A stretch of 64,000 nucleotides of DNA from an uncultured Actinomycetes bacterium (GCA_963776735.1 CAVZNV010000023.1:15080-79079), one strand, 5' to 3'; shown: positions 5,943 through 58,487, numbered from the stretch's first letter. A program made the numbers and translations. The notes: generated by a model from the sequence alone, not told the origin.

Positions 5943-7457
5943 CTAGAAGGTGGGGTCGTTGACGATGTTGTTCGGGTGGTTCAGGAGCACGAGGCCGCCC
6001 GCGACAGTGAGGGTCGCGCCGTCGGCGTTGAACACGCCTCCGCCGGTGATGAAGGCCTGGTTGCCGACGACGACCGCACCTGTACCGAGCGTGACGTCGG
6101 CCGGGCCTTGCATGGCCCAGTTGAAGATGCCGCCGCCGAACTCGGCCTGGTTCGGGTTGAGCGAGTAGGGCGGCTGCAGCCTCGTTGACCCGATCGTGGT
6201 CGACACGATCGAAGTGCTTGCGTCGGCTCCCTGGCTGACGTTGGCGATCGCTCCTCCGAGCCCTTGCCGTGCGAGGTTGCCGACGAGCGTCGATCCGGAC
6301 ATCGTCAGAACGGCGTTTCCGCCGCCGCTGCCCGGATCGCCGCTGATGTTGGCGATCCCGCCGCCGCCGGACTGCGCCCCTTTGACGATGTTCAGCGACA
6401 CGTCCGTGCTTGTCAGTTGCAGGGAGGCGTCGCCGCCGAAGGCACCGCTGAAGATGCCGCCGCCAAGGCCGGACTGGTTGCGCGTCACCTGGCTGTTCGT
6501 GATCGTCAGCTGGCCCGTGCCGGGAACGCCGAAGTTGGCGTTGAAGATGCCGCCACCATTCCCTTGATCTCCAGAGTTGTCGTCAGGGGCGAGGTTCCCG
6601 TTGATGGCGCTGCCGCTGATAGTGGCGACGCCGTGGTTGAGGATGCCGCCACCGACCCCGCCAACGGCCTGATTCCCCGACACCGTGCTGTTCGTCAATG
6701 TCAGCGTGCCACCGTTCGCGATCCCGCCAGCACCACCGGGCGGCCCGCCTGTCGCCGAGTTGCCCGAGACCACGCTGCCCGTGATCGTCATCGTGCCGCC
6801 TGCACCGGCGCTGCCACCGTTGCCGTTCGCGATCCCGCCCCCGCCCTGGGCAGAGTTGCCGCTCACGACGCTGTTGTTCAGCACCGCCGTGCCGTTGTGG
6901 TTCAGGATGCCGCCACCACCACCGTTTCCGGGGGCGGCAAGAACGACGTTATCCGTCACTCGCGTCGAGTTCAGGGTCAGCATCCCACCGGGAGGGCCTG
7001 GATTGGCTCCGCTGACAATCCCGCCACCGGCGTCCGCGGCGGTGTTTCCCGTCACCAGACAGTTGTTCAACGTCAGCGTGCTCTTGATGCTCCCAATGCC
7101 ACCGCCCACGTCGGGCGAGTTGCCTCCCGTCACCGTCAGATTGTTCAACGTCACCGTGTGGCCCGGGAAGACTTTGAGCGTGCTACCCGCCCCCTGGCCG
7201 TCCAAGGTCGCGCTCGGTGAGCCCGTGACCGTCACGTTCGCCGTCACCGTGAACGTGCCGTCACACGTACCACTCACAAACACGGTCCCCGGCACGCCCA
7301 ACGCCGCCTGAAAGGCCGCCGACCCACCGACCGCGTTGCAGTTGACCGTGGTCGATGCCGAAGCAACCCCCGCCCCAAACACCAACACCGCCAACACACC
7401 TGCCAACAACACGACTGGCGCAAAGTGGACCCGCCGACCGCAGTTCCCTACTCGCAT
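5943..7457 (-). CDS. secreted parallel beta-helix protein with Pmp-like GGGI-x-N repeats
   Basis: Start at MRVGNCGRRVHF...VASAST (signal peptide). About 15 repeats of GGGI(x)N / TL.NS.VSGN, as in polymorphic-membrane-protein / right-handed beta-helix repeats. Confidence 0.75.
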   Translation of the reverse strand: MRVGNCGRRVHFAPVVLLAGVLAVLVFGAGVASASTTVNCNAVGGSAAFQAALGVPGTVFVSGTCDGTFTVTANVTVTGSPSATLDGQGAGSTLKVFPGHTVTLNNLTVTGGNSPDVGGGIGSIKSTLTLNNCLVTGNTAADAGGGIVSGANPGPPGGMLTLNSTRVTDNVVLAAPGNGGGGGILNHNGTAVLNNSVVSGNSAQGGGGIANGNGGSAGAGGTMTITGSVVSGNSATGGPPGGAGGIANGGTLTLTNSTVSGNQAVGGVGGGILNHGVATISGSAINGNLAPDDNSGDQGNGGGIFNANFGVPGTGQLTITNSQVTRNQSGLGGGIFSGAFGGDASLQLTSTDVSLNIVKGAQSGGGGIANISGDPGSGGGNAVLTMSGSTLVGNLARQGLGGAIANVSQGADASTSIVSTTIGSTRLQPPYSLNPNQAEFGGGIFNWAMQGPADVTLGTGAVVVGNQAFITGGGVFNADGATLTVAGGLVLLNHPNNIVNDPTF

Positions 7458-7688
7458 CACAACCCCTTCTCTCAAAGTTTTTGCCAAACCCAACACCCAT
7501 CCAGCCTGTTCGTTCGTGCCAGTATCCACGAATCCCTCCGACAGCGGCAGAACCGGAAAACACGAGCCCGCGAGGGGCACGTTCGGGGAGCCGTACGAGC
7601 AGAGGTTACGCTGGCTAAAGGTTTCGGAGCGCGTCGCCAGCCGGGCTCGACCGCGTCAGCGGCCCTCTAGCGGCGACGAAACGCACGG

Positions 7689-8015
7689 CTAAGACGACAG
7701 ACAGGCCAGCAGTACGCGTGAGTAGTCGGGATGGACGTACTCGCCCCACTCGATAACGACGTTGCGGTGCTGTTCGACGAACTGGTTGAGTCGCCACGAA
7801 GGAGACGGGTAGAGCTTCCTCACGATGCGTAGAGCGGCTCGGAAGTACGCGTCTTCGGCAGTGCTGTCGGTGAAGAACGAGACGTAGCTCTGGTTCGGCC
7901 CCTCGCCCGACGGCGAGGAGCGGCCTCGAAATGGAGCGAAGGTGAGAAAAAGCTGCGGCACACCGGGAGGGTCTGCCTGAACCCAGATGCCGTCGCTGCC
8001 CGGACGTCTACGCAC
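7689..8015 (-). CDS. hypothetical protein
   Basis: The C-terminal ~108 codons of the 226-aa ORF look protein-like (FFTDSTAEDAYFRAALRIVRKLYPSPSW...). GTG at 8015 is the first start that does not overlap the upstream gene. No family recognised. Confidence 0.3.
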   Translation of the reverse strand: MRRRPGSDGIWVQADPPGVPQLFLTFAPFRGRSSPSGEGPNQSYVSFFTDSTAEDAYFRAALRIVRKLYPSPSWRLNQFVEQHRNVVIEWGEYVHPDYSRVLLACLSS

Positions 8016-8038
8016 GACGCTCAACTCCGGTATCGGCC

Positions 8039-8494
8039 CTACCGCGCTTGGTCTATCGAACTCAGGACGGTGACGCAGACACGCTGCCGTCTGCGCCGCC
8101 GAGTAGTTGTGCGGCTCCCCGCCTCCGCAAGCACCGCCGCGAATAAGAACACCGCACCGACGAGCCAGAGCCAAGACACCAGCGGCGTCAGCGGCGACGC
8201 CGCCGACCGTTCTTCTTCGGGTCGCCTCCACTCGACTTGCGGGCCACGAGCTTCCGCGAGATCGCGCTCGTACACGAGTACCTCCTGCCATCCAAACGGC
8301 CACGCTACGACCGCCGAGTCCGTGTCCCGGTACGAGCTGGCGATCCCTTTCGCCCGCAAGATTCCGCACACCACCTCGGCCTCCGCCGACGAGGCAACCG
8401 CCGTCAGGTGCACCTCGTTCGTCACTTCAGCACCATCGGCACCGCGACGCACCGCCGCGACCTCCTGGCGAGTGCCTGTCCCCCGCTCGGCCAA
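8039..8494 (-). CDS. hypothetical membrane-anchored protein, DUF2007-like N-terminal domain
   Basis: AEAEVVCGILRAKGIAS...VLVYERDLAEA resembles the small 'putative signal transducing' DUF2007 fold. One TM helix follows (LVSWLWLVGAVFLFAAVLA). Start uncertain. Confidence 0.45.
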   Translation of the reverse strand: MAERGTGTRQEVAAVRRGADGAEVTNEVHLTAVASSAEAEVVCGILRAKGIASSYRDTDSAVVAWPFGWQEVLVYERDLAEARGPQVEWRRPEEERSAASPLTPLVSWLWLVGAVFLFAAVLAEAGSRTTTRRRRRQRVCVTVLSSIDQAR

Positions 8495-8557
8495 GCAGCA
8501 TCGACGGCCGCTCCGCTACGTCAACCGCCCCGCCCGAGGGATTCGTTCCGCCCGTTG

Positions 8558-9121
8558 TTAGCGCACCCGGGCCTGGACAGCGTGCAAGTGCCGCCGGGCG
8601 GACTTCAGCAGGGCGAGCGCCGCCGGGACGTTGCCGGAGTCGATGGTGTCGGCCGAATCGGTGACGACCCCGACGAGCACGCTCCCGTCGGCGACCGCCA
8701 AGACCGTGATCCCATTCGTCACCGTCTTGCCGAAGGCGTTCTTGCCGGTGATCGACCCGGTGAACCAGATGCTCGGCAGCTTGTAGCCCGGCACCTTGCC
8801 CTGAACGTGGACGCTTCCAGGCGGTTTCGCGCCCGACAGGTCGGCCCGCGCGTCGCTCGGGTTCGGGAACACGGCGTAGAAGATCGCGTCGTCCGGGTCG
8901 GGGCCATCCACGGCGACGCCCACCTCGCCGACGACGTGGTGTCCCTTCGCCTTCGAGGACGGCTGCTCCAGGCTCACCTTCGCCGAGGAGAACCCCGACG
9001 GGAGTTGCGAGTCCGGGTAGGCGGTCGTGAGCAGGGCCGTGTACAGCGACTTTGGCGAGGCCGAAGCCGTCGCAGCGAATACCCCGGCGACCAGCGCGGC
9101 GATAACCAGAAGCCGTCTCAC
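8558..9121 (-). CDS. secreted hypothetical protein
   Basis: GTG at 9121 gives VRRLLVIAALVAGVFAATASASP (signal peptide). The listed 309-aa ORF runs through the tRNA gene, so it cannot be real upstream of this start. Confidence 0.6.
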   Translation of the reverse strand: MRRLLVIAALVAGVFAATASASPKSLYTALLTTAYPDSQLPSGFSSAKVSLEQPSSKAKGHHVVGEVGVAVDGPDPDDAIFYAVFPNPSDARADLSGAKPPGSVHVQGKVPGYKLPSIWFTGSITGKNAFGKTVTNGITVLAVADGSVLVGVVTDSADTIDSGNVPAALALLKSARRHLHAVQARVR

Positions 9122-9235
9122 AACGCAGACCCTAACCCGGGCCGGACCCGTACAACTTGCCACTTTGCTTGCTACCCAGCCCTCTGGCGCTTCGGCGGCG
9201 CTTAGCGGCCATACCCGCGAATGGCTTGAATCCAG

Positions 9236-9323
9236 TGCCGGGGGAGGGATTCGAACCCTCATGCCCCACGAGGGGACACCTGATTTTAAGTCAGGCGCGT
9301 TTGACCAATTTCGCCACCCCGGC
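9236..9323 (-). tRNA. tRNA-Leu, anticodon UAA
   Basis: Minus strand folds by hand: acceptor GCCGGGG/CCCCGGC, D-arm, anticodon stem CCTGA/TCAGG with loop CTTAAAA, long variable arm (class II), T-arm GAGGG-TTCGAAT-CCCTC, discriminator A. CCA is not encoded. Confidence 0.9.
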
Positions 9324-9351
9324 GCGAAGGGAAGCGTAGAGGGCGAGCGGG

Positions 9352-10122
9352 CTAGTAGCCCAAACGGGCGAAGTCGAACGAGCTCGGGATGCTGGACGGC
9401 TTCTTGCCGAGGACGAGCGCGATCTCCTGGTGGCTCTTGAGGACGAGCTTGGCCGGGTTGCCGACGTACTTCTTCCCGTTCACCCACATCTGCACCCGGC
9501 CGCAGCTGCCCTTGAAACTGCCGATGCAGCTCCGCGTCAGCCTCACGCCCCAGACGCCGAAGAACTGGCCGAGGTTGAACGTCACAGGACGGCCGGTCTC
9601 GACGTGGAGGATGTCGTTCGGCGCGTGCGTGTGCATCTCCGCGAACGTCGCCGACTGGCCTCCCGGCGCGATCTGGATGCCGACGTACTGCGGCACCGTC
9701 ACCTTCTGGCCGTTCACCCAGAGGTCGAGGTGCTGGTGGATGTGGTAGACGAGCTGCTCGTTGGCGGGCGGCTGCAGCCCGATGTCGCCCACGCGGGCGG
9801 TCAGGAGCGTGGCGTTCGCGGGCCAGGGCGGCGGTTTCGTCTGCAAGCCGGGCAGGTCGTGCCAGCTGATGTTCCCGGTCATCGACGGCTTCAGCTTCGT
9901 CGAGCTGCGCGTGAGGCCGATGCCGAGAGCGATGCCAAGGATCGCGAGCAGGACGACGACGGCGGCGATCGGCCAGAAGTGCTTCGAGGCCCAGCCGGTC
10001 GCGGACCCGCCCGAGCCGGGCGGCTTCTTCGCAGGCCCCGAGCGCTTCTGCGGCGCCTGCACCTGGCGTGCGCCGGCGTCGGTCGCGCGTGGAGGCTTCG
10101 GGGTGCGCGCCTTCTTCGCCAC
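9352..10122 (-). CDS. membrane-anchored hypothetical protein (basic N-terminus, one TM, extracytoplasmic domain)
   Basis: GTG at 10122 (VAKKARTPKPP...). TM helix FWPIAAVVVLLAILGIALGIGL. Conserved-looking domain with HIHQHLDLWVNG and EMHTHAPNDILH. Confidence 0.65.
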   Translation of the reverse strand: MAKKARTPKPPRATDAGARQVQAPQKRSGPAKKPPGSGGSATGWASKHFWPIAAVVVLLAILGIALGIGLTRSSTKLKPSMTGNISWHDLPGLQTKPPPWPANATLLTARVGDIGLQPPANEQLVYHIHQHLDLWVNGQKVTVPQYVGIQIAPGGQSATFAEMHTHAPNDILHVETGRPVTFNLGQFFGVWGVRLTRSCIGSFKGSCGRVQMWVNGKKYVGNPAKLVLKSHQEIALVLGKKPSSIPSSFDFARLGY

Positions 10123-28773: not shown

Positions 28774-29624
28774 CCGCTGCGGCGGTAGACGCAGCTGCTG
28801 TGATCGGGCCGGAAGCCGGCGCCGAGGTAGGTCTTCTTCGCGCCGGGGTTCTTGTCCCAGTAGCTCACCTTCAACCGCTCGCAGCCGCGCGCCGCGAGCC
28901 GATCGACTCCAGCCGTGAAGACGTGCCGTGCCAGGCCGCGGCGCTGATAGTCGTCCTCGGTGCGCATCGGCTCGACGAGGCCCACGCGGGTGACCGGGTC
29001 GGGCCAGAACAGCCCATATGCGGCCACATCTCCGTTGGGAGCCTCGACGAACAAGTCGAGCTCGGGGTCGTAGAGCGAGCACTCGGCCAGACGCTCAGCG
29101 ACGTGCTCGCCGTTGCGGCGAACGAAGTGATGTGGCCGGTCGGCGGTCTCCGCCCGCGAGCGGAGCCGGAACCCATCCGGGAGGGGCGCAACCGGAGGGC
29201 GTCGCGCCGCGTCGAGCCAGCTCGTCGTGTCCTCGTCGCCCCCGGCCGCAAAGCCGGCGTCGCCGAGCGCGCCGAGCAGCAACGGATCGTCGTTGCGGGC
29301 GCGAATCGACACGGACTCGAGCCCGAGCTCGGCGAACCGCTCCAGCGCGCGCTTCCAGACCGGCCCGAAGTCCCCCGGGTCGACGATCACGTCGCACTCC
29401 CACTTGCCGTCCCAGTCGTTGAGCGTGACGGCCGCGACCGGCTCGTCCGCGTCATCCAGCCAGAACAGCTGCCCGAGCTCGTCGGACGGCCGCTCCCTGC
29501 GCCACCACCAATGGAAGTCCGCTGCCTCCCAGACGCCGCCGGTCGGATCAGCGAGTCGCCGTCGCTGCAGGAGCCGCGTGATGGCGTCGAGATAGTCCCG
29601 TCCGGCGAGCTCGACGAGGCGCAC
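28770..29624 (-). CDS. GNAT family N-acetyltransferase
   Basis: Acetyl-CoA motif A (YQRRGLARHVFTAGVDRLAARG) in the C-terminal half. GTG 29624 overlaps the upstream TAG by 1 nt. Confidence 0.75.
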   Translation of the reverse strand: MRLVELAGRDYLDAITRLLQRRRLADPTGGVWEAADFHWWWRRERPSDELGQLFWLDDADEPVAAVTLNDWDGKWECDVIVDPGDFGPVWKRALERFAELGLESVSIRARNDDPLLLGALGDAGFAAGGDEDTTSWLDAARRPPVAPLPDGFRLRSRAETADRPHHFVRRNGEHVAERLAECSLYDPELDLFVEAPNGDVAAYGLFWPDPVTRVGLVEPMRTEDDYQRRGLARHVFTAGVDRLAARGCERLKVSYWDKNPGAKKTYLGAGFRPDHSSCVYRRSG

Positions 29625-30748
29625 TAGAGAAGCCGGGCCGGATCGAACAGCTCGAGGTCCGGCGCGTCGCGGCCGAGGATTGCGTTCGCGACCAGCTCGC
29701 CGCACATGAACCCGAGCACCATCCCGTGCCCCGAGTAGCCCCCGGCGACCCAGAGACCGTCTTCGCCCGGCACAGGCCCGACGACCGGCATGAAGTCCGG
29801 CACGAGCCCGAACAGCCCGGCCCAGCGGTGCGTGACGACGACGGGCCAGCCGACGAGGTCGGACACGAAGCCGTCGAGTGCCGCCTGGATCTCCTCTGTC
29901 GTCTCCTCGTTGGTCGTGAACTCGGTCGCGAGCGACGTGTCGCGGAAGCCGCCGGCCAGGATGCGCCCGTCCTCCCGCTGCTGCCAGTAGTCGAAGCCGT
30001 GGCGGCTGTAGTGCGGGCAGTCGAAGAGGCGCTCGGGGATCGGCTCGGTGGCGACCATCTGCGCCCGCGTCGGGATGATCGAGCCCTCGAGCGGGCCGAG
30101 CAGCCCGCTGGGGTAGCCGTCGGTGCAGACGACGACCTGCTCGGCGTCGAGCTCGTCCCGCGAGTCGACGCGGCTGCCCTCGCGGATGTCGGCACCCGCC
30201 TCGGCTGCAAGCGCGGCGAGACGTCGCGTCCAGCGCGCCGGCTGCAGCGCGCCGTCGCCCGGGTGGAAGATCGCCGCGGTGAACGTCGCGTCGAGCGGGT
30301 GCTCGAGCCGGTCGCGCCATTCGACCTCGAACCCGTCCTCGCGTAGCAGCTCGTACTCGGCGCGGAGACTCTCGCGCTCCTCGTCGTCTGCGGCGAGGCG
30401 CAGGCTCCCCGTGCGGACGAGTGCGTCGCCGCCGAGCACGGCCATCCGGTCGAGAGCCTGCTCGGTCGCGCGCCAGTACGACGCCGTTCGCTCTCTTCCG
30501 ATCGCCTCGGCGGTGACGTCGTACGACGCCGCACCGCCGCGCAGCGCGAAGCCGCCGTTGCGTCCGCTCGCGCCCCAGCCCACGGCGCGCGCGTCGTAGA
30601 GACGCACCCTCTTGCCGGCTTCGGCGAGGGCGCGGGCGCACGCACAGCCCGTGACACCGCCGCCGACGATCGCGACGTCGACGGGCCCGTCCAGCCTCCG
30701 GTCGAGCCGCTCCGGGAACGGCTCCTCCAGCCAGTACGTCGAGCTCAC
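29624..30748 (-). CDS. FAD-dependent oxidoreductase (DAO / glycine oxidase-like)
   Basis: N-terminal dinucleotide fold VAIVGGGVTGCACARALAEAG, then SGRNGG. DAO-family length and layout. Confidence 0.85.
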   Translation of the reverse strand: MSSTYWLEEPFPERLDRRLDGPVDVAIVGGGVTGCACARALAEAGKRVRLYDARAVGWGASGRNGGFALRGGAASYDVTAEAIGRERTASYWRATEQALDRMAVLGGDALVRTGSLRLAADDEERESLRAEYELLREDGFEVEWRDRLEHPLDATFTAAIFHPGDGALQPARWTRRLAALAAEAGADIREGSRVDSRDELDAEQVVVCTDGYPSGLLGPLEGSIIPTRAQMVATEPIPERLFDCPHYSRHGFDYWQQREDGRILAGGFRDTSLATEFTTNEETTEEIQAALDGFVSDLVGWPVVVTHRWAGLFGLVPDFMPVVGPVPGEDGLWVAGGYSGHGMVLGFMCGELVANAILGRDAPDLELFDPARLL

Positions 30749-31377
30749 GCCGTCCGCTCGTACAGCTCGACGAGCGCGGCTCTCGGATCGTCGTCGATGT
30801 AGCCGCCGTGCGACAGACAGAGGAGGTCGATCTCGAGGTCGAGCAGGCTCGCCAGGCTGTCACGGGAGATACCGGCACGGAGCCGGGTGTGGTCTTCGGA
30901 GAGCTGGAGCGGGCCCGACGAGTCGCGGCGCGTGACGAGATCGCCGATGAAGAGGATGTTCGGCTCCCCCGGCCGGTAGAGCGAGTAGTGGTCGTACTCG
31001 GGGCCGGGGGTCCGGATCGCCCGGAAGTCCGCCGGTAGGTGGGTGCCTTCGACGTAGTGCTGGTCGGGCTCGGTGAGCAGGCCCCACGACCCGCGAGGCG
31101 CGACGACGCGCGCGCCGTGCTCGAACCTGTAGCGCCACGAGGCGCGCTGGTGGCAGCCTCGGGTGAGCAGCGCATACGACACCGCGGGGAACCGGTCGGC
31201 GGCCGCGTAGGTCATCGGGAGCGGGTCGACGAAGATGACGCCCGCCCGCGTGTAAACCGAGTACGAGTCGCTCTGAGCGCCTCCGATCCGCTCGTCGGAG
31301 ACAGACCAGTGCTCGGTCGCCTCGGCGATCGACCGCGTCCTCTGCGCCCGTTCGGTCGGCTCCTTCACGCCGATCAT
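30745..31377 (-). CDS. MBL-fold-like protein with degenerate metal-binding motif
   Basis: C-terminal ...LLCLSHGGYIDDDP resembles the MBL fold. The position of HxHxDH reads TRGCHQRAS. ATGA overlaps at both ends. Confidence 0.5.
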   Translation of the reverse strand: MIGVKEPTERAQRTRSIAEATEHWSVSDERIGGAQSDSYSVYTRAGVIFVDPLPMTYAAADRFPAVSYALLTRGCHQRASWRYRFEHGARVVAPRGSWGLLTEPDQHYVEGTHLPADFRAIRTPGPEYDHYSLYRPGEPNILFIGDLVTRRDSSGPLQLSEDHTRLRAGISRDSLASLLDLEIDLLCLSHGGYIDDDPRAALVELYERTA

Positions 31378-32372
31378 CCTAGGGGCCGGGCGAGCCGAAA
31401 GAAACCGTCTCTTTCGGACACGGCTCCGGCGAGCTCGAGCTCCGTCAGGGCTGCGGCGAGCGCACCCGGGTCGAGCTCGAGCGCGCGCGCGAGCGCGTCC
31501 GCTGGCAGCGGCTCGGCCTCGAGCCGGGCGAGGACGAGGGCCGCTGTCTCCCCCAGCCCGGCCGCGACGACGACGGGCTGCTCGGGCTCGATGCCGAACG
31601 TCTCGAGCACGTCCGCGATCGCGGTGAGCGGTGTCGCGCCGTTCCGGAGCAGCCGGTTCGAGCCGACCGAGAGCGAGGAGGTGATCTCGCCCGGCACCGC
31701 GAACACCTCGCGCCCCTCCTCGAGCGCGAGGTCGGCGGTGATCAGCGCGCCGCTCCGCTCGCGCGCCTCGACGACGATCGACGCCTGCGCGAGTCCCGCG
31801 ACGATGCGGTTCCGAGCGGGAAAGCGCCACGGAGCCGGCTCGACACCGGGCGCGTATTCCGACACCACCAGGCCGCGCTCCCCGATCCGGGCGGCGAGCT
31901 CCGCGTGCGCCGCGGGGTAGTCGCGGTCGACGCCGCAACCGAGGACTGCGACGGTCAGCCCTCCCGCGTCGAGCGCGCCCCGGTGGGCATGGCCGTCGAC
32001 GCCGCGCGCGAGGCCGCTGACGACGACGAGCCCGGCGGCGGCGAGTTCGCGGCCGAGCATCCGCGCGACGTCGGCGCCGTAGGCGGAGCAGCTGCGGGCA
32101 CCCACGACGGCGACCGAGGGACGATCGAGCATCGCGAGCTCGCCCCGCCCGCGGACGAAGAGGCCTGCCGGCGCGTCGAAGATCGCGGCCAGCGCCGACG
32201 GGAACTCCCTCGCCGAGCGCGGCAGCCAGCGCAGGCCGCGTTGCTCGAGGCCGGCAAGGTACGCGCGCTCGTCGAACTCGCGCCGGAAGCGCGCGAAGCG
32301 ATCGCTCCGTGGAGCCTCGAGCACGTGCGAGTCCGTGTGCGCGGCGAACGCGGCGAGGGCGAGCTCGCTCAC
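31374..32372 (-). CDS. dprA: DNA-processing protein DprA
   Basis: Rossmann-like DprA core (VVGARSCSAYG, VVSGLARGVDGHAHRGAL, RNRIVAGL, SGALITADLALEEGREVFAVPG). GTGA overlap with the comM 3' fragment. Confidence 0.85.
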   Translation of the reverse strand: MSELALAAFAAHTDSHVLEAPRSDRFARFRREFDERAYLAGLEQRGLRWLPRSAREFPSALAAIFDAPAGLFVRGRGELAMLDRPSVAVVGARSCSAYGADVARMLGRELAAAGLVVVSGLARGVDGHAHRGALDAGGLTVAVLGCGVDRDYPAAHAELAARIGERGLVVSEYAPGVEPAPWRFPARNRIVAGLAQASIVVEARERSGALITADLALEEGREVFAVPGEITSSLSVGSNRLLRNGATPLTAIADVLETFGIEPEQPVVVAAGLGETAALVLARLEAEPLPADALARALELDPGALAAALTELELAGAVSERDGFFRLARPLG

Positions 32373-32953
32373 GCGGACTGGAGCTCCGTCGGAGTGCGGT
32401 ACGAGAGCGCTTCCGAGACGTGTTCGGGCAGGACGTCCGCCGTCCCGGCCAGGGCCGCGATCGTCTGGGCGGTGCGGGCGACTCGGGCACGCCCGCGGCC
32501 GGAGAGAGGAAGCCGCTCGACCGCGCGCGTGAGCAGCTCGTCGGCCTCGGCCGTGCGCAGAGGCAACTTGCCGCGGAGCCGCTCACGCGCTGCGCAGACG
32601 CGCTCGCGTACCGGCGCGGAGGCTTCGGACGGCCCGGCTGCGAGCTCGGCCCCGCGCGGACGCGGCACGGTGACGACGAGGTCGAAGCGGTCGAGCAGAG
32701 CGCGCGAGAGCTTGTTCCGGAAGGCGGCGAGCCGCTGCGGCGAGCATGCGCACTCGGCGGCCGGATCGCCGCGCGCCCCGCAGGGGCACAGGTTCATCGT
32801 CGCAACGAGCTGGAACCGCGCCGGGTACAGCGCCTGGCCGGCGGCCCGCGCGACGCTGACGATGCCGTCCTCCAGCGGTTGCCGCAGCGACTCCAGCGCC
32901 GGCCGCATGAACTCGGGCAGTTCGTCGAGCAACAGGACGCCGCGGTGGGCCAG
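32369..32953 (-). pseudogene. comM: comM (YifB/Mg-chelatase-like ATPase), 3' fragment
   Basis: Encodes LAHRGVLLLDELPEF...LRQPLEDG...NLCPCG...RFDL (Walker B onward). An in-frame TGA at 32957-32959 lies just upstream. Confidence 0.85.
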
Positions 32954-32974
32954 CGTTCAGGAATGTCGCTTGAG
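32946..32974 (-). repeat. module-tail repeat, copy 1 (abuts comM 3' fragment)
   Basis: TGGGCCAGCGTTCAGGAATGTCGCTTGAG, 25/29 identical to 33415-33443. Confidence 0.8.
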
Positions 32975-32996
32975 ACTCGTGAGGTGTCGTAGGCGC

Positions 32997-33344
32997 TCAA
33001 AGGACGGGGCAATCGGTGAGCGACGAGACTTTCAGCGTGTTGCCGCCTACACGGTCGCCGATACCGAGCGTGAGGCAACCAAGCCGATCGCCGTTCCCGT
33101 TTGTGACGAGCCACCAGCTCGTCCCGTCTCCGTAGTCGTGGGCGGTCACGGAGACGCCGGGCGGCAGGTACTTGACGTACCGAAACCGGTCGCACGCTGA
33201 CGTGCGGCAATCGCGAACGACAACCGCGGTCGTTGTGTCGTTCCGCAGCGCTATCGTCCACGTCCCGTCCTCCCGGTTCAAATCACAGCCAGCGGCCGCC
33301 CAAACGAGAGCAAGCAAGGCCACACACCCGGTGATCGCGCGCAT
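32997..33344 (-). CDS. small lipoprotein, unknown function (cargo of comM insert, module 1)
   Basis: MRAITGCVALLALVWAAAGC lipobox, Cys-rich 115 aa, same strand as comM. Confidence 0.6.
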   Translation of the reverse strand: MRAITGCVALLALVWAAAGCDLNREDGTWTIALRNDTTTAVVVRDCRTSACDRFRYVKYLPPGVSVTAHDYGDGTSWWLVTNGNGDRLGCLTLGIGDRVGGNTLKVSSLTDCPVL

Positions 33345-33414
33345 GGGTTAGTTGTACGCCACCTCGCTAGTCAGCGCATCGCCAGAACAGGCGATCAGGC
33401 GGGAAGGGTCTCGG

Positions 33415-33443
33415 ATGGGCCAGCGTGCGGGAATGTCCCTTGA
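33415..33443 (-). repeat. module-tail repeat, copy 2 (between the two modules)
   Basis: TGGGCCAGCGTGCGGGAATGTCCCTTGAA. It sits 31 nt past the stop of the 240-aa ORF, in the same relative position as copy 1. Confidence 0.8.
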
Positions 33444-33473
33444 AGTAGTCCGCTGTCCGACCGGGGCGTGCTT

Positions 33474-34196
33474 CTAGCCGCCAGCAGCCCAGCCTTGGAA
33501 GGGTGAGAGCGAGCGTCCCGGCGGATCGAGAGTGCCTGCGGTGAAGTTCCAGTAGCCGGGGCCAAACATCACCCGACGCACGATGATCCGCTGGGCGCGT
33601 GCCCTTGCCCATTCGAGGGCCTCTGACAAGCGGACGCCGTCAACTTGCTCGATCACCGTCGCGTCGAGTTCGGTGAACTTCTCGACTTGTTGATGCGGGT
33701 TGTACTCGAGCAGTTGCCCCGAGTACATGCGCGTGCCGATCCGACGCTCCGGCGTCCACTGCTCTGTGACGTGGACGTAGCCTCCGTAGCGGCGCTCAGT
33801 CTCCGGCTCGCGCTGTCCGACTGTCGCGATGTGTGTCGGCCAGCGAGGGATGTCCGCCGTCTCGTCGCAGAGTTCCCCGGCCTCAAACTGCTGTTCGGGT
33901 TCCTCGTCGTCGTCTGCGTGTTTATCCGTGATTACGTTCACGTAGACGTAGGGGGCACGCTGACGACCCCACGTGATCGCGTCTCCGACGTCATCGAAGT
34001 ACGGCCCGGTGATGTCGGATCGCCCCTCGGCGTCGGCCACGAGCCAATAAGTGCCGAACTTCCCTTCACTGGCTTCGTAGGCGAACTCGTACGCCGATTC
34101 GCTTTCGACGCGTGCCAGACCACTGACCAACCGATACCCCTCGGCGATGACAACAAGGCGCTCGCCCATCGACCCGAAACCATAGAGCGAGGGCAA
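33474..34196 (-). CDS. acidic hypothetical protein (cargo of comM insert, module 2)
   Basis: 240-codon ORF (TTG 34196; alternative ATG 34169), GC3-rich, no signal peptide, no family recognised. Possible internal two-domain duplication. Confidence 0.55.
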   Translation of the reverse strand: MPSLYGFGSMGERLVVIAEGYRLVSGLARVESESAYEFAYEASEGKFGTYWLVADAEGRSDITGPYFDDVGDAITWGRQRAPYVYVNVITDKHADDDEEPEQQFEAGELCDETADIPRWPTHIATVGQREPETERRYGGYVHVTEQWTPERRIGTRMYSGQLLEYNPHQQVEKFTELDATVIEQVDGVRLSEALEWARARAQRIIVRRVMFGPGYWNFTAGTLDPPGRSLSPFQGWAAGG

Positions 34197-34242
34197 CGGT
34201 CAGTAGTCGTGGTTCCGCCTGATCGCGCCAAGTTCCTGGCGA

Positions 34243-35142
34243 CTACGCCATGGCCTGCGCGAGGCTCGCCTCGCCCGGCCTCGGCCCGGGGCCACCACCG
34301 ACGATCGCCGCCGTCGAGGCAGAGTGGTGCGGCGCTCGAAACGGCGGCTCGTCGATCAGCGGTCGTCCCGGCTGGAGCGTGCCGGCAACGGAGTGGATGC
34401 GCGTCACCTCCAGCGCTTCGTCCGACGCGAGCGGCGGCAGGATCCCCGGCAATCGGCGGGCGAGCATCGTCTTCCCCGTCCCCGGCGGCCCGGCGAACAG
34501 CAGGTTGTGCGATCCGGCGGCTGCGATCTCGAGCGCTCGGCGGGCGCGTTCCTGACCACGGACGTCGGCAAGGTCGGGATGGACGCGGCGCGGCCCGTTG
34601 CCGTTCGCGGGCGCCGAGTACGGCGGGGGTTCGCCCTCGCCGCGCAGATAGGCGACCGCCTCGGCAAGGTGCCGCAGAGGCACTGCGTCGACGCCGGCCA
34701 GCTCGGCCTCCGGGGTCGACTCGGCGGCGCAGAGGAGCCGCGTGAAACCGGCTCGTCGCGCGCCTTCGGCAGCCGCGAGGACGCCGCCGACGGGCCGGAT
34801 GCGCCCGTCGAGCGCAAGCTCGCCGAGCGCCGCGTGCCCCGCCAGCGCCGTCGCCGGGATCTGCCGCGAGGCGGCGAGAATCGCAAGGGCGATCGGCAGG
34901 TCGAAGCCCGAGCCCTCCTTCCGCAGCCCGGCCGGAGCGAGGTTGACGGTGATCCGCCGAACCGGCCACTCGAGCTCGGCCGACGCGATGCCGACGCGGA
35001 CGCGCTCCTTCGCCTCCTGGCAGGCGCGGTCGGCAAGCCCGACAATCGCGAACCCGGGGACGCCGAGCTGGAGGTGCGCCTCGACCTCGACGCGGCGCGC
35101 CTCGAGGCCGACGAGCGCATGCGTGACCGTCCGCGCAAGCAC
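34243..35142 (-). pseudogene. comM: comM (YifB/Mg-chelatase-like ATPase), 5' fragment
   Basis: Lon-protease-like N-domain plus AAA+ Walker A (LLFAGPPGTGKTMLA), ending ...RPGEASLA. It then reads QAMA-stop into the insert. Confidence 0.85.
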
Positions 35143-35191
35143 GGGTCGACCGTAGCCCGGACTTCGTGACGTGTCTGTGCCGGTTTTGCGC

Positions 35192-36319
35192 CTATTCGGG
35201 CACGGCGACGAGCACGTCCTCGAAGTACTCGCCGGCCCGGCGACCGGTACGGCGGTTCACGTGCCTCCGCAGCCGTCCGCGGAGCTTCAGCCCGGCCTGC
35301 GACAGGATCCCCGGATAGAGCTCGCGGCGGTCGTTGACGACGATCAGCAGCGGCGCGCCCGGGTGGAGCGCGTCTGCGGCACGGCGCAGTGTCGCGGCGA
35401 TTCCGTCGCAGTAAGCCGCCAGCGACGCCTTGCTCGTCCCGCCGGCAGCAGCGCCGATCTCGTGCTCGCGCCGGTCGTCCAGGTCGAGTAGCTCGTAGGC
35501 GTAGCGGTGCTGCTCGTGGTAGTCGATCAGACCCGGATAGGGCGGCGAGGTGATGACCGCGTCGAAGCGGCCGTCCCAGTCGAGCTCGCGCGAGTCGCCG
35601 TGCCGGACGAGTGCCTCCCGACCTCGGGCGCGCACGCGCGCGAACGCCTTGATCCGTGCCAGCGTGTCGAGCGCGTAGCGGCTGAGGAAGTGGGAGGCGT
35701 GGTCGACGGGCCGGCACTCGCGCCGGTGCTTGTGGCACCAGTACGGCTCGAGCTGCGGCGTCCGCGGGAAGTCGAGGTCGAAGTGTGTGGTCAGCCGGGC
35801 CGACCGCGCGGCGCGCGCGAGCACGACGCGCATGACGTCGGCGTGCTCGTACTCCTCGAGCAGCGTCCGCCAGCAGAGCAGGTCGGCGGCCGCCTGCGGA
35901 GCGAACCACTGTCCGACGTAACCGTGTCCGAGGGACAGTCCCTCGGACGTGTCCGGACCGGACGCGATGCGCCGGACTGCGTCGCGCAGCTCCTTCTCGA
36001 GGACGAACTCGTTGTACCGAGCAGTCTTGACCCGCATGAGCAGGCAGTTGAACGCAGCCAGGTCGGCGCCGGCCGCGTCATGACCGGACTCGAGCGCCTG
36101 CACGAGCGTCGTCCCCGAGCCGGCGAACGGGTCGAGGGCGCTCCCGCCGGGCGCGACGTACCGGTCGAGCAGCACCTCGACGAGCTGCGGAATGAACTTG
36201 CCCAGGTACGGATGGAGCCGGTGAACGTGCTTTGTCCGCTCCCGCTCCGGTAGCTGCCCCTCCGACCACGACAGGTCGAGGTCGATCTTCGCGTAGAGCG
36301 CGCTTTGAGTGTGCGCCAT
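35192..36319 (-). CDS. site-specific DNA methyltransferase (N4/N6 amino-MTase; motif I precedes SPPY)
   Basis: HPYLGKFIPQLV...LDPFAGSGTTLVQA (AdoMet motif I) lies N-terminal and DAVITSPPYPG (motif IV) C-terminal. No adjacent endonuclease ORF. Confidence 0.85.
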   Translation of the reverse strand: MAHTQSALYAKIDLDLSWSEGQLPERERTKHVHRLHPYLGKFIPQLVEVLLDRYVAPGGSALDPFAGSGTTLVQALESGHDAAGADLAAFNCLLMRVKTARYNEFVLEKELRDAVRRIASGPDTSEGLSLGHGYVGQWFAPQAAADLLCWRTLLEEYEHADVMRVVLARAARSARLTTHFDLDFPRTPQLEPYWCHKHRRECRPVDHASHFLSRYALDTLARIKAFARVRARGREALVRHGDSRELDWDGRFDAVITSPPYPGLIDYHEQHRYAYELLDLDDRREHEIGAAAGGTSKASLAAYCDGIAATLRRAADALHPGAPLLIVVNDRRELYPGILSQAGLKLRGRLRRHVNRRTGRRAGEYFEDVLVAVPE

Positions 36320-57427: not shown

Positions 57428-58369
57428 TCACCGCAGCCTTGTCCACCAGCCGGACGCGAAGCTCCGCCAACCGGCAGAGCTCAACCCTGGCTTGAGGCTT
57501 CGAACGTGCCCCGTTGTCTTCCATCGCAAGGCGTCGCCGCGTGCCATGCCGGCGACTTCGATGCGGTTCTTGCCGAGCTGCTTCGCGCGCCGTTGCGCTT
57601 GCTGTGCGCGAGCGAGGAAGACGCGGGGCGACTCGCCGTGCCCGAGCGTCGCGACGCCGGCCGAGAAGGTGATGCGCCCGACAGCGACGATGGGCGCCTG
57701 GAGCTCGGCCAGCAGGCGTCTCGTCGTGCTCACGGCGTCCTCCGGATTCGCCTCCGGGAGCAGGACGACGAACTCGTCCCCTCGGTAGTGCGCGACGAGA
57801 GCGTCGACTCCCGGGAGCGCGCGGGCGAGGCGCGCGCCGGTCTCCGCCAGCACGTCGTCGCCGGCTCGCAAGCCGTGCGTGGCGTTGACCTCGCGGAGAT
57901 CGTCGCCGTCGAACACGATCAGCGAGAGCTGCGTGTCCGGCTCCCGGCGCCGCGCACGGTGCGTTCGCCTGACGTGCTGCTCGAGCGCTGCGAGGAAGGA
58001 CGGCTGGTTGGAGAGCATGGTCCTCGCATCGAGGGACGCCAGCGAGCCGTTCTGCGTCGGCCGCACGCCGGCCTGCGCCGCGTCGAACTCGTCCCGGCTC
58101 ACGATTCCCTCGTGCGTCCCGTCGCCCATGTAGACGGGATTTCGGATCAGCGCGGCAACCTCCGGCTTCGACCAGCGCTCACCCCCGGTGGTCGGGTGAA
58201 CGTCGCGCGCTGTCAGGAAGTCGGCCAGCTCAGCCCAGGACGCCCCGATCGCCCGCCTGCGGAACGCTTCTGCGATCTCGGACGCTTCGGGCTCGTCCCG
58301 CACCAGACGGCGCGAGCCGTTCCGCCGGTAACCGGCAGGGCTCCTGGCGATGTGACGAAGGACTCGCAT
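57428..58369 (-). CDS. chimeric ORF: large-serine-recombinase 'Recombinase' domain fragment fused to a GGDEF (RGDEF) domain
   Basis: About aa 10-105 (PAGYRR...LVRDEPEASEIAEAFRR..GASWAELADFL...ERWSKPEVAALIRNPVYMG...IVSRDEFDAAQ) match the LSR Recombinase domain. About aa 113-290 form a GGDEF fold (LSLIVFDGDDLREVNATHGLRAGDDVL...YRGDEFVVLL). Confidence 0.7.
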   Translation of the reverse strand: MRVLRHIARSPAGYRRNGSRRLVRDEPEASEIAEAFRRRAIGASWAELADFLTARDVHPTTGGERWSKPEVAALIRNPVYMGDGTHEGIVSRDEFDAAQAGVRPTQNGSLASLDARTMLSNQPSFLAALEQHVRRTHRARRREPDTQLSLIVFDGDDLREVNATHGLRAGDDVLAETGARLARALPGVDALVAHYRGDEFVVLLPEANPEDAVSTTRRLLAELQAPIVAVGRITFSAGVATLGHGESPRVFLARAQQAQRRAKQLGKNRIEVAGMARGDALRWKTTGHVRSLKPGLSSAGWRSFASGWWTRLR

Positions 58370-58487
58370 GTGCCGTCTGATTCGATCCGGTTGCGAGTCT
58401 CGGCCCCTGCCGGACGGAAGTCAAGGGTCGTGCAGCTCGAAAGCCCTGGAAACAGGGCTTTCGGCGCGCAGGCCGAACTCTCCGGAC

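Follow-up and report, generated by a model that had tools for sequence, protein, structure and literature searches.

Two cargo-only gene cassettes in a split comM gene, probable members of a site-specifically recombining family in soil Thermoleophilia

Introduction

The storage and shuffling of single genes in the form of recombinase-less cassettes is, to our knowledge, well described only for integrons, which, as far as we know, are essentially absent from Actinomycetota. Integron cassettes are small, mostly single-gene and promoter-independent units without a recombinase of their own, which stand head to tail in arrays, carry small accessory enzymes and each end in a recombination site with one fixed crossover point; the units described here share these features. 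Their hosts, Gaiellaceae and Solirubrobacterales, are among the commonest and least cultured soil bacteria.

The insert in comM that we describe also resembles several other systems. CIMEs (PMC5704250, PMC6323972) are integrase-less and bounded by the att sites of integrase-bearing relatives, and in the ICE/IME accretion of Streptococcus, elements mobilisable in cis or in trans form tandem arrays at an att site. Tycheposons of Prochlorococcus (bioRxiv 10.1101/2020.12.28.424599) integrate repeatedly at one site, pushing older elements inward. In Gram-negative bacteria, mobile elements such as AbaR/Tn6022 disrupt comM (PMC12378983, PMC11014353), which plausibly reduces the transformation-mediated curing of mobile genetic elements. 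We consider it probable that the insert consists of two cargo-only cassettes of a large, site-specifically recombining family in soil Thermoleophilia (Gaiellaceae, Solirubrobacterales).

Results and Discussion

Two cassettes split comM at a site that is empty in a relative

In the window, that is, the whole 64-kb stretch of DNA analysed, comM (minus strand) is interrupted by a 1,310-nt insert (32946-34255) with a lower GC content (0.61-0.66) than its flanks (0.72-0.78). The insert consists of two head-to-tail units of 840 and 470 bp, here cassettes A and B, each with one ORF and each ended by a tail of ~28 nt. The features of the region are as follows.

31374..32372, minus strand: dprA, downstream neighbour (Pfam DNA_processg_A; same order in L124 and L175)
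32369..32945, minus strand: comM 3' part, beginning C CGC GGC GTC CTG (H-R-G-V-L-L-L-D-E); Mg_chelatase 111-204 and Mg_chelatase_C
32946..33415, minus strand: cassette B, 470 nt (5' arm, one ORF, 3' tail)
32946..32973, minus strand: tail B, 28-nt 3' arm ending CTGGCCCA, joined to the comM 3' part (right junction); nhmmer E=1.1e-7
32997..33344, minus strand: cassette B cargo ORF, 115-aa predicted lipoprotein (lipobox Cys20 and four further invariant Cys)
33416..34255, minus strand: cassette A, 840 nt (5' arm, one ORF, 3' tail), from the left-junction CA to the CA of tail A
33416..33443, minus strand: tail A, conserved 28-nt 3' arm ending CTGGCCCA; nhmmer E=2.7e-8 against the family profile
33474..34196, minus strand: cassette A cargo ORF, 240 aa (231 aa with an alternative start), near-orphan
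34256..34263, minus strand: left junction core CTCGCGCA, codons L-A-H, native comM allele, with unit A directly next
34256..35142, minus strand: comM 5' part (YifB/Mg-chelatase-like AAA+ helicase), native up to core CTCGCGCA; Pfam ChlI and Mg_chelatase 1-106
35192..36319, minus strand: N6/N4 DNA methyltransferase, upstream neighbour (Pfam N6_N4_Mtase; present in L124 and L175)

The insert divides the Pfam Mg_chelatase profile, of which positions 1-106 match the ORF at 34243-35142(-) and positions 111-204 the ORF at 32369-32932(-). In the syntenic relative L124, whose intact comM is 97% identical at the amino acid level, cassette A is missing and the site is empty, which indicates that the insertion is recent. 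Window positions 36318..34256 align to L124 4825..6887 and positions 32953..29229 to L124 6880..10606, the comM 5' part being collinear with the intact gene up to L124 position 6887 and the 3' part from position 6880. The 8 nt CTCGCGCA of the empty site, present there in a single copy, align to both junctions, as CTCGCGCA at 34256-34263 and as CTGGCCCA at 32946-32953, and these imperfect junction cores agree at 6/8 positions; the left one is the same as in the empty sites, AGCCTCGCGCAC, of both L124 and L175. The left junction carries the native allele (-6 C, -3 G) followed by the cassette G at +1, and the right junction the tail allele (-6 G, -3 C) followed by the native C at +1. Compared with L124, this pattern places the crossover between -3 and +1, which, as judged from the alignment, maps it to the CA within the S/T-L-A-H codons. 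The sequence that follows, H-R-G-V-L-L-L-D-E, is the region of comM leading into Walker B.

No tails were found close to the intact comM of L124 or L175. Among the 120 closest comM relatives (79-97% amino acid identity), the gene reads uninterrupted through ...SLAHRGVLLLDE wherever the sequence was checked, and nearly all of the proteins have the full length of ~487 aa; a split at SLAH occurs in none of them, and those of odd length break elsewhere. Unlike the AbaR/Tn6022 islands, which belong to a different phylum, the insert has no 5-bp duplication, no terminal inverted repeats and no tns genes, and its insertion point lies inside the S/T-L-A-H codons; Tn7-like features are thus lacking, as the core is single in the empty site and the 1.3-kb insert holds no transposition genes. 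Unlike tycheposon targets, the target here is internal to a protein-coding gene and is not restored; the units are also much smaller than tycheposons, most of which retain their integrase and replication modules.

The two-unit structure had been recognised in the preliminary description of this DNA, and the unit sizes given there (841 and 469) are right to within 1-2 nt. The two ~29-nt tails that it reported are indeed 25/29 identical, and at ≤3 mismatches nothing else in the 64-kb window matches, with 0 matches expected from shuffles; the position of the first, 32946-32974, is right, whereas that of the second, 33415-33443, was one base off (33416-33444). What had been taken for a third, partial tail at 34250-34260 is really the native comM core (34256-34263) together with the first 6 nt of unit A.

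Both cassettes carry cargo without matches in Pfam or PADLOC. For the 240-aa ORF of cassette A, which stops 29 nt before its tail, a word-indexed search of 5.8 G returned only the ORF itself, and among 1.84 G representatives there were just six weak relatives (E 4e-7 to 8e-4). The 115-aa lipoprotein of cassette B, which stops 22 nt before its tail, has seven metagenome homologues at 54-60% identity, and homologues of cassette B, tail-bounded and with different neighbours, occur in L001/L002 and L178. Tail A and the 5' arm of cassette B together form an internal full site, and the right-junction type of tail B recurs in L094 and in 50 metagenome contigs. With one ORF each, the units encode no recombinase, so that any recombinase must act in trans; no tyrosine recombinase is encoded in the 64-kb window.

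The tail bounds a large family of shuffled units

A profile search recovered at least 471 tail copies in at least 172 loci, mostly from Gaiellaceae and Solirubrobacterales MAGs, with at least 120 genome loci coming from a genome scan with the tail profile. The tails delimit at least 289 units of median 688 bp, one gene being present in 114 of 196 units, and arrays can be dense, with 8-10 tails in 6 kb in L001 and 15 in 10 kb in L150. Tail orientation is nearly always constant within a locus (exceptions at 3 of ~120 genome loci), whatever the orientation of the genes, which run with the tail in 85 cases and against it in 97. The cargo includes GNAT, cupin, glyoxalase, SnoaL and RibD_C proteins, small accessory enzymes of a kind that recalls chromosomal integrons. 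Clustering of the ORFs of 122 loci gave no shared non-cargo family, the largest families being cargo. We found no published description of these arrays in the literature searched; the cassette family that soil Thermoleophilia stack into arrays is large and apparently undescribed.

Several cassettes recur in other genomes at 84-96% nucleotide identity, with homology ending at the CA and unrelated flanks. In L026/L049 (96% identity) the limits fall at -20 to +5 around the cassette, and homology stops at +1 in L005/L069 (91%), at -1 in L021/L054 (94%), at 0 in L021/L059 and at +9 in L106/L150 (94%). Pure vertical synteny, under which shared cargo would always come with shared flanks, is contradicted by these pairs. 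The earlier proposal of a serial accretion of recombinase-less cassettes at one site is supported both by this recurrence with changed neighbours, homology stopping at the CA, and by the empty site of L124 together with the hundreds of mostly single-gene units that the tail bounds. Among diverged homologous cassettes, tail similarity was no higher than in random pairs, which counts against our reading, and comparison of cargo similarity with that of its upstream and downstream tails gave no signal below 90% amino acid identity.

These data also bear on the idea that the insert is the decayed stump of a larger element (prophage, ICE or IME) in comM, in which the tails would be attL/attR-type scars and the two ORFs surviving cargo, without any movement of single-gene cassettes. 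In its favour, the same site also bounds units that carry an integrase, in some cases along with a relaxase, an excisionase or phage-like genes, and tycheposons and ICE/CIME systems are documented to accrete and then decay (PMC5704250). A deletion, however, would not generate a complete site in the interior, between one gene and the next, nor do scars of decay account for cassettes that recur with unrelated flanks and homology up to the CA, for a median unit of 688 bp or for tails that outnumber integrases ~70 : 1, and we regard a decayed stump as improbable.

The site copies comM codons and has no hairpin

The 28-bp 3' arm is strongly conserved, with the consensus TC(A/G)GGgG(A/T)CATTCCsG(A/c)AC(A/G)CT(G/c)GC(C/G)CA, whereas the 5' arm is weakly conserved and consists of GGCGAG.GTCCT or of a longer comM 3' fragment. 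In 324 tail copies, variation within the final 12 nt falls on -12, -9, -6 and -3, the wobble positions of x-T-L-A-H, and the remaining positions are 94-100% conserved; the synonymous-codon mimicry of comM first noticed in the window therefore holds family-wide. The CA is conserved in 97-98% of copies while -3 and +1 vary, and the best dyad centre of the region falls between -2 and -1, i.e., between C and A. A short site with an imperfect dyad around the crossover, from whose direct repeats circles would be excised, recalls Cre/loxP or hix/res, but of the two arms here the left is by far the longer and the better conserved, and the enzymes are candidates only.

When 120 copies were folded on both strands with DNA parameters, the mean z scores were +0.07 and +0.32, with only 2.5-3% of copies below -2; the strongest covarying pair in a mutual-information scan for paired columns (-21/-14) was not Watson-Crick, and an Rfam search of three arrays gave no match at E<=1. 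This lack of structure weighs against reading the tail as an intergenic repeat, REP-like or regulatory (terminator, operator or small-RNA site), whose presence in comM is incidental. The tail is abundant, short, intergenic and dispersed, mostly away from comM, as such a repeat would be, but within arrays it points one way whichever way the genes run, coincides exactly with the ends of the insertion against the empty site and with the ends of homology in shuffled cassettes, mimics comM codons and has comM fragments next to its CA. The repeat reading is largely refuted, and we give it very little credence.

Non-autonomous transposons mobilised by a transposase of the HUH (IS200/IS605- or IS91-like) or another type, inserting 3' of a short target word and needing only one conserved end, would fit the single strongly conserved end, the target word CTSGCSCA, the absence of a target-site duplication and the strict orientation. 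They would not fit the lack of subterminal hairpins, the dyad symmetry centred on the crossover or the integrases that flank the site, and no HUH transposase was noticed, the only such passengers being occasional putative IS110 and IS3 genes in large units, identified by eye without Pfam confirmation; such transposons seem to us highly improbable.

Resemblance to integrons and Xer/dif modules without a match in detail had been noted at the outset, and membership in the integron, Xer/dif or Tn7-like systems fails in each case. A true integron, an integrase-less attC cluster (CALIN) or Xer/dif modules would be suggested by arrays of small, mostly single-gene cassettes with integron-like cargo and by a 28-nt site of dif length. 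Unlike integrons, these Thermoleophilia arrays are dispersed and adjoin neither an IntI-type gene with adjacent attI/Pc nor any conserved platform (no Pc-type arrangement, and no shared non-cargo family among the ORFs of 122 loci). Their site, 28 bp (up to ~40 bp) and of a double-strand type, lacks the hairpin potential of attC on either strand and mimics host comM, and their genes are not co-oriented with the array. With the actinobacterial dif model CACGCCGATAATGCACATTATGTCAAGT (PMC3025954), a 28-bp site with XerC/XerD arms and a 6-bp spacer, the best ungapped match is 10/28 (null mean 10.6, p=0.82), and the copies are direct in all but the 3 exceptional loci rather than alternating as in pdif modules. 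Platform, hairpin, orientation and dif tests thus refute these readings, to which we attach almost no weight. A blastn search of PLSDB plasmids and INPHARED phages with the 42-nt consensus site gave only chance-level partial matches.

comM is a recurrent target

The same junction nucleotides occur in L094, which has at least three tails and a comM only 51% identical to that of the window. In 50 metagenome contigs a tail is joined to comM-like 3' sequence, a few with the full 3' part of comM and most with fragments of 12-50 codons. In the preliminary description, the cassette reading had been set against the possibility of a common dispersed repeat unrelated to comM; the tail is indeed common, dispersed and mostly far from comM, but it is tied to that gene, since its CA is often followed by a comM 3' fragment of 12-50 codons and the 50 contigs use exactly the same site. 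Tycheposon islands hold partial tRNAs and degenerate elements, from tRNA integration with partial tRNA repeats; the cassette arrays hold relics of comM, a coding target. Fragments of the comM 5' part (PGExSLA) stand beside arrays only in the window and L147.

Most tails of array genomes do not adjoin comM, which in 120 genome blocks lay next to tails only in L094. The notion that all arrays lie inside comM was dropped, as one tail (P0120/L037) is ~340 kb from an intact comM. That most tails lie outside comM, and that the arrays have no conserved flanking platform gene, counts against our reading. Like CIMEs, the cassettes share att sites with integrase-bearing elements and hold neither integrase nor transfer genes. 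Unlike CIMEs, they outnumber the integrase-bearing units by ~70 : 1, have a median of 688 bp and form arrays of 10-15. Cassettes occupy comM, the putative primary attB, in the window, L094 and a few of the 50 contigs, whereas most tails in genomes lie elsewhere; no parental ICE/IME carrying this cargo was found.

Tyrosine integrases occur in rare units that share the site

While the cassettes of the window are recombinase-less, as had been claimed, tyrosine integrases are encoded in rare units that have this site, and a source of recombinase in trans thus exists. In each of L092, L097 and L155 the CA is followed at a distance of 91-452 nt by an integrase gene whose 3' end faces the site, L155 having a 20-codon comM-like arm too, and in L094 and L114 an integrase lies 0.8-1 kb before a tail. 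All five contain the Pfam Phage_integrase domain, above the curated cut-off in L092, L097, L155 and L094 (partial) and below it in L114 (25.9 bits vs 27.1). L114 also has a TrwC relaxase and L092 an excisionase-like gene; the L092 and L114 integrases have no relatives in IMG/VR. Motif and phmmer searches gave only six scattered, mutually distant tyrosine recombinases. Adjacency, at 5-6 of ~170 loci, is the only tie between recombinase and site, which counts against the assignment, and the pairwise identity of just 27-31% among the integrases is odd for enzymes with one common site.

The same cassettes and site could instead be served by a serine recombinase that exchanges strands at the central CA of an imperfect palindrome, with the 28-nt arm as a long P-type half-site and comM as the B-type site. 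In hix/res site I and in the att sites of large serine recombinases, half-sites abut a central crossover dinucleotide, and here the crossover interval of -3 to +1 is essentially the conserved CA between variable neighbours, with half-sites abutting at a dyad centre exactly between C and A. A crossover of ~2 nt at a dyad centre suits a serine recombinase at least as well, and this counts against a tyrosine enzyme. A large serine recombinase element also lies in the same comM in L125, but it abuts a different site (between ...QLVA and TMNLCPCG), and no serine recombinase adjoins any tail in ~1.1 Mb of tail-centred DNA (phmmer, two queries). Large serine recombinases normally do not recombine P-type sites with each other, whereas the shuffling of arrays would need P-type x P-type recombination, and a tyrosine mechanism that tolerates heterology or exchanges a single strand would leave the same junction pattern after replication. 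We regard a serine recombinase as unlikely and infer a tyrosine recombinase, in a cycle that may be active at present.

A model for cassette movement and its implications

In our best reading, the cassettes are moved in trans by site-specific recombination and work like integron cassettes or CIMEs, being members of neither. A cassette would extend from the base after one CA through the next CA and comprise a 5' arm, usually one gene, and the 28-bp 3' arm; circularised, it would carry one site, 3' arm-CA-5' arm. Neither circular junctions nor excision products were observed, which counts against the model. We infer a recombinase that would exchange strands at or next to the near-invariant CA, the best dyad centre, with a partner that is either another such site or the natural comM look-alike ACN/AGC CTN GCN CA followed directly by Y, which codes for S/T-L-A-H immediately ahead of the stretch that leads into Walker B. 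A full site would be recreated with every insertion, allowing cassettes to pile up head to tail, and two cassettes would so have entered comM of the window strain and inactivated it. The most likely source of the enzyme is the tyrosine integrases of the rare autonomous units with the same site.

It is quite possible, though we would stop short of calling it probable, that Thermoleophilia possess a gene-cassette system besides the integron, one that evolved independently and performs the same task by different means. Such a system would use a non-hairpin site of ~40 bp with a core that copies the wobble-tolerant S/T-L-A-H codons of comM; it would have many dispersed arrays per genome, with cassettes in either orientation and no fixed platform or dedicated integrase beside the arrays. 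comM would then be a natural landing pad, where the gain of a cassette can also switch off a transformation gene.

If true, this cassette system would account for part of the accessory genome of Gaiellaceae and Solirubrobacterales, the 28-nt tail would offer a handle for recovering a mobile gene pool from metagenomes, comparable to attC-targeted PCR, and site and enzyme would make a compact new pair for genome engineering. As the site copies the conserved codon positions of comM and varies at the wobble, either recombinase specificity or the history of strand exchange may have been shaped by the genetic code. The targeting of comM, the natural-transformation helicase, by mobile elements would be a pattern extended to Gram-positive soil bacteria.

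Some minor observations concern single loci. The 5' regions of the two window cassettes share a 12-nt perfect inverted match that is absent elsewhere in 1.1 Mb and is near chance expectation. In L051, L058 and L065 one 650-bp block travels with 81 nt past the CA, a point against the simple model, which does not predict it. A search of IMG/VR gave one tail match, L123.

Two cassettes interrupt comM in the window

The window carries, on its minus strand, the gene order HtpX, DNA methyltransferase, comM, dprA and FAD oxidoreductase, and the same order is found on the metagenome contig L124, which encodes P0010, the nearest homologue (97% amino-acid identity; 487 aa, intact) of the window's ComM, an AAA+ helicase of the competence system. 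Judged by its closest comM relatives, the window derives from a Gaiellaceae MAG. Using blastn, we found window 36318..34256 to correspond to L124 4825..6887, and window 32953..29229 to L124 6880..10606.

Features of the split gene
34243-35142, minus strand: comM 5' part, an ORF with ChlI plus Mg_chelatase profile positions 1-106 (Pfam), the first half of this AAA+ domain
32946-34255: insert in comM, 1,310 nt, with limits from blastn against the empty site of L124
33416-34255: unit A, 840 nt, 5' arm, one ORF and tail
32946-33415: unit B, 470 nt, 5' arm, one ORF and tail
32946-32974 and 33416-33444: the two 29-nt tails, 25/29 identical
32369-32932, minus strand: comM 3' part, an ORF with Mg_chelatase profile positions 111-204 and Mg_chelatase_C (Pfam)

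The stretch separating the comM halves has a GC content of 0.61-0.66, and the window around it 0.72-0.78. The insert indeed consists of two head-to-tail single-gene modules, as the preliminary description had proposed, with both ORFs (240 aa and a 115-aa lipoprotein-like product) on the comM strand and neither matched in Pfam or PADLOC. The two similar tails that it had noted, i.e., the conserved 3' arms ending in CA, were likewise recovered as the only tail matches in the 64-kb window at ≤3 mismatches, where 0 were expected. The 5' regions of the units share a perfect 12-nt inverted match, GCGATCAGGCGG / CCGCCTGATCGC (33391-33402 and 34215-34226), 14-40 nt in from their ends; it had no other copy in related loci totalling 1.1 Mb and is near chance expectation.

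Because the two blastn blocks overlap on L124, the 8 nt CTCGCGCA of its empty site match both insert junctions. At the left junction the native CTCGCGCA is retained and followed by GGCCATGG, at the right junction ...ACGCTGGCCCA is followed by the native CCGCGGCGTCCTG, and neither junction has a target duplication. Counting the A of CA as -1 and the next base as +1, native and cassette sequence differ at -6, -3 and +1, which places strand exchange between -3 and +1, essentially inside CA. None of the 120 closest comM homologues (79-97% identity) is split at this point, and no tails occur near comM in L124 or in a further comM locus, L175, indicating a recent and strain-specific insertion.

Tails form arrays of discrete units

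The feature is real and widespread. The window lipoprotein has seven metagenome homologues, one of them in L001, a locus with 8 same-orientation tails in 6 kb, small genes between them and, by eye, one or two more degenerate copies. A degenerate tail pattern, run against a single genome for each GTDB species, returned at least 120 matches, those listed being nearly all from Gaiellaceae, Solirubrobacterales or other Thermoleophilia MAGs, with a few on short contigs binned to other phyla. With an nhmmer tail profile, we obtained at least 471 tails in at least 172 loci and at least 289 tail-to-tail units, of median length 688 bp (5th-95th percentile 269-2,700 bp). One gene was called in 114/196 units, two in 24/196 and none in 52/196; 97 genes ran opposite to the tail and 85 were co-oriented. 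Among the matches listed, tail orientation was uniform per locus except in three genome loci, and the densest arrays held 11 tails per 8 kb (L017) and 15 per 10 kb (L150).

The site was absent from PLSDB and INPHARED and occurred once in IMG/VR (L123, IMGVR_UViG_3300012211_000254, 92-119). In addition to the site, L123 encodes an AAA_25 protein, part of a terminase and, at its far end, a tyrosine integrase (7527-8711), which puts the site at the border of a region resembling a provirus. Upstream of the L001 array, adjoining an HTH gene, lies an A/C-rich low-complexity non-coding stretch (480-660, caaacagcaaacgaacgacaacgaaaaacgaacagcaaag...), atypical for a genome of ~70% GC.

Cassettes behave as discrete mobile units. 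Pairs in different genomes (L026/L049, L005/L069, L021/L054, L021/L059, L059/L106 and L106/L150) share 84-96% DNA identity within unrelated flanks, the homology covering only the cassette and the generic upstream tail and stopping 0-10 nt from CA. The tail-bounded lipoprotein cassette lies beside a deaminase cassette in L001, a 94-aa ORF in L178 and comM in the window.

Three genomes share, at 97-98% identity and between unrelated flanks, a block of 650 bp that codes for an RNase H/RVT_3 protein (tail-oriented coordinates: L051 2838-3491, L058 2424-3077, L065 5795-6451). On the left the block ends in a CTCGCGCA half-site; on the right it ends 81 nt beyond the CA of the tail, within a decayed relic resembling comM. 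The arrangement resembles a cassette lodged in a portable 'landing pad'.

The site resembles comM

Across 324 copies, conservation is strong from -28 to -1, with the consensus TC(A/G)GGgG(A/T)CATTCCsG(A/c)AC(A/G)CT(G/c)GC(C/G)CA, and weaker from +1 to +12, with GGCGAG.GTCCT. Within the last 12 nt of the tail only -12, -9, -6 and -3 vary, the third codon positions in an x-T-L-A-H(Q) reading, which bears out the earlier suggestion that the tail end mimics comM with synonymous codons; the sequence past CA resembles comM CAC CGC GGC GTC CTG. We found no folding of either strand (mean z ~0), no Rfam match and no likeness to actinobacterial dif. Dyad symmetry is best centred exactly on the step from C(-2) to A(-1), with complementarity in 57-75% of copies at the mirrored pairs -5/+3, -7/+5, -4/+2 and -10/+8.

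Among the genome blocks listed, comM adjoins an array only in L094, where at least three tails precede TLAHHGVLFLDE..., at the same nucleotide as in the window, in a comM 51% identical to the window's. A junction-specific metagenome scan yielded 50 contigs with a tail joined to comM-like 3' sequence. A few run on into the full comM 3' half; in most, the comM 3' sequence breaks off after 12-50 codons and gives way to unrelated DNA, some of these fragments sitting within arrays (e.g., L150). Cassette 5' arms are thus derived from comM to varying degrees. Despite this link, tails are dispersed, one MAG having a tail ~340 kb from an intact comM on a single contig. Hence, of the alternative that the tail is a common repeat unrelated to comM, 'common' and dispersed hold, but 'unrelated' conflicts with the 50 junction contigs. 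In Gram-negative bacteria, comM is an established hot spot of mobile elements (PMC12378983).

comM has a second insertion hot spot, ~48 codons further downstream (...ARFQL(V/I)A|TMNLCPCG). It is abutted in L125 by a 9-kb element that encodes a large serine recombinase (Resolvase+Recombinase+Zn_ribbon; features 7438-9123 and 9060-9545, given with the tail on the plus strand, an orientation that may be opposite to that of the stored locus), and several metagenome ComM proteins (P0035, P0060, P0128, P0076) diverge or end at or near these residues.

Candidate recombinases

Among the matches listed, the arrays have no conserved flanking platform gene. Tyrosine integrases are carried by rare units bearing the same site. 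In L092, alongside an excisionase-like gene, in L097, as a fragment, and in L155, behind a 20-codon comM-like arm, the integrase gene is 91-452 nt past CA and has its 3' end towards the site; in L094 (within comM) and L114 (with a TrwC relaxase; Pfam score 25.9 vs 27.1 bits, just under the curated cut-off) it is 0.8-1 kb upstream of a tail. Their pairwise identity is only 27-31%. This adjacency points towards a tyrosine integrase that acts in trans. A serine recombinase, none of which was found next to any tail in the loci searched, would likewise be compatible with a crossover ~2 nt wide at the dyad centre. A tyrosine integrase with a heterology-tolerant or single-strand-exchange mechanism, together with replication, would give the same junctions, and the wobble variation would then represent target alleles copied into the tail core.

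Elsewhere in the window, a stop-to-stop ORF (57431-58420, minus strand) combines a GGDEF domain with a fragment (residues 45-118) of the 'Recombinase' domain found in large serine recombinases and may be a recombinase remnant adjoining, or fused to, a diguanylate cyclase gene.

Comparison with known systems

Functionally, integron cassettes and CIME-type accretion are nearest. Membership among integrons was rejected, as the system has no IntI or attI platform, no hairpin at the site and genes in mixed orientation; Xer/dif and Tn7-like membership failed on their own tests. The initial impression of an integron- or dif-reminiscent arrangement matching neither is thus upheld. The units fit the descriptive definition of CIMEs but differ in scale, with ~70 tails per integrase, single-gene units and dispersed arrays, and the target-fragment litter parallels that of tycheposon islands. 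The proposed serial accretion of recombinase-less cassettes gains support from the empty site in L124, the arrays and the varied cassette neighbours. We found no prior description of such arrays in the literature searched, and the feature is probably an undescribed integron-like cassette system for which the recombinase is a candidate only.

Cassette cargo

The cargo is ordinary accessory enzymology: RibD_C, cupins, GNAT acetyltransferases, glyoxalase, SnoaL-like proteins, DUF1801, dienelactone hydrolase, deaminase, APH, a P-loop (AAA_18) kinase-like protein and large cyclase-AAA-TPR regulators. The commonest family (20/122 loci, including L009, L054, L062, L075, L120 and 15 others) comprises Guanylate_cyc-AAA_16-TPR regulators (980-1,195 aa) and alpha/beta-hydrolase-cyclase fusions, each gene occupying one large tail-bounded unit. 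IS1111/IS110 elements target integron attC sites; here, large tail-bounded units contain an IS110-family transposase and an IS3-family orfA/orfB pair (identified by eye), so insertion sequences are also collected by the arrays.
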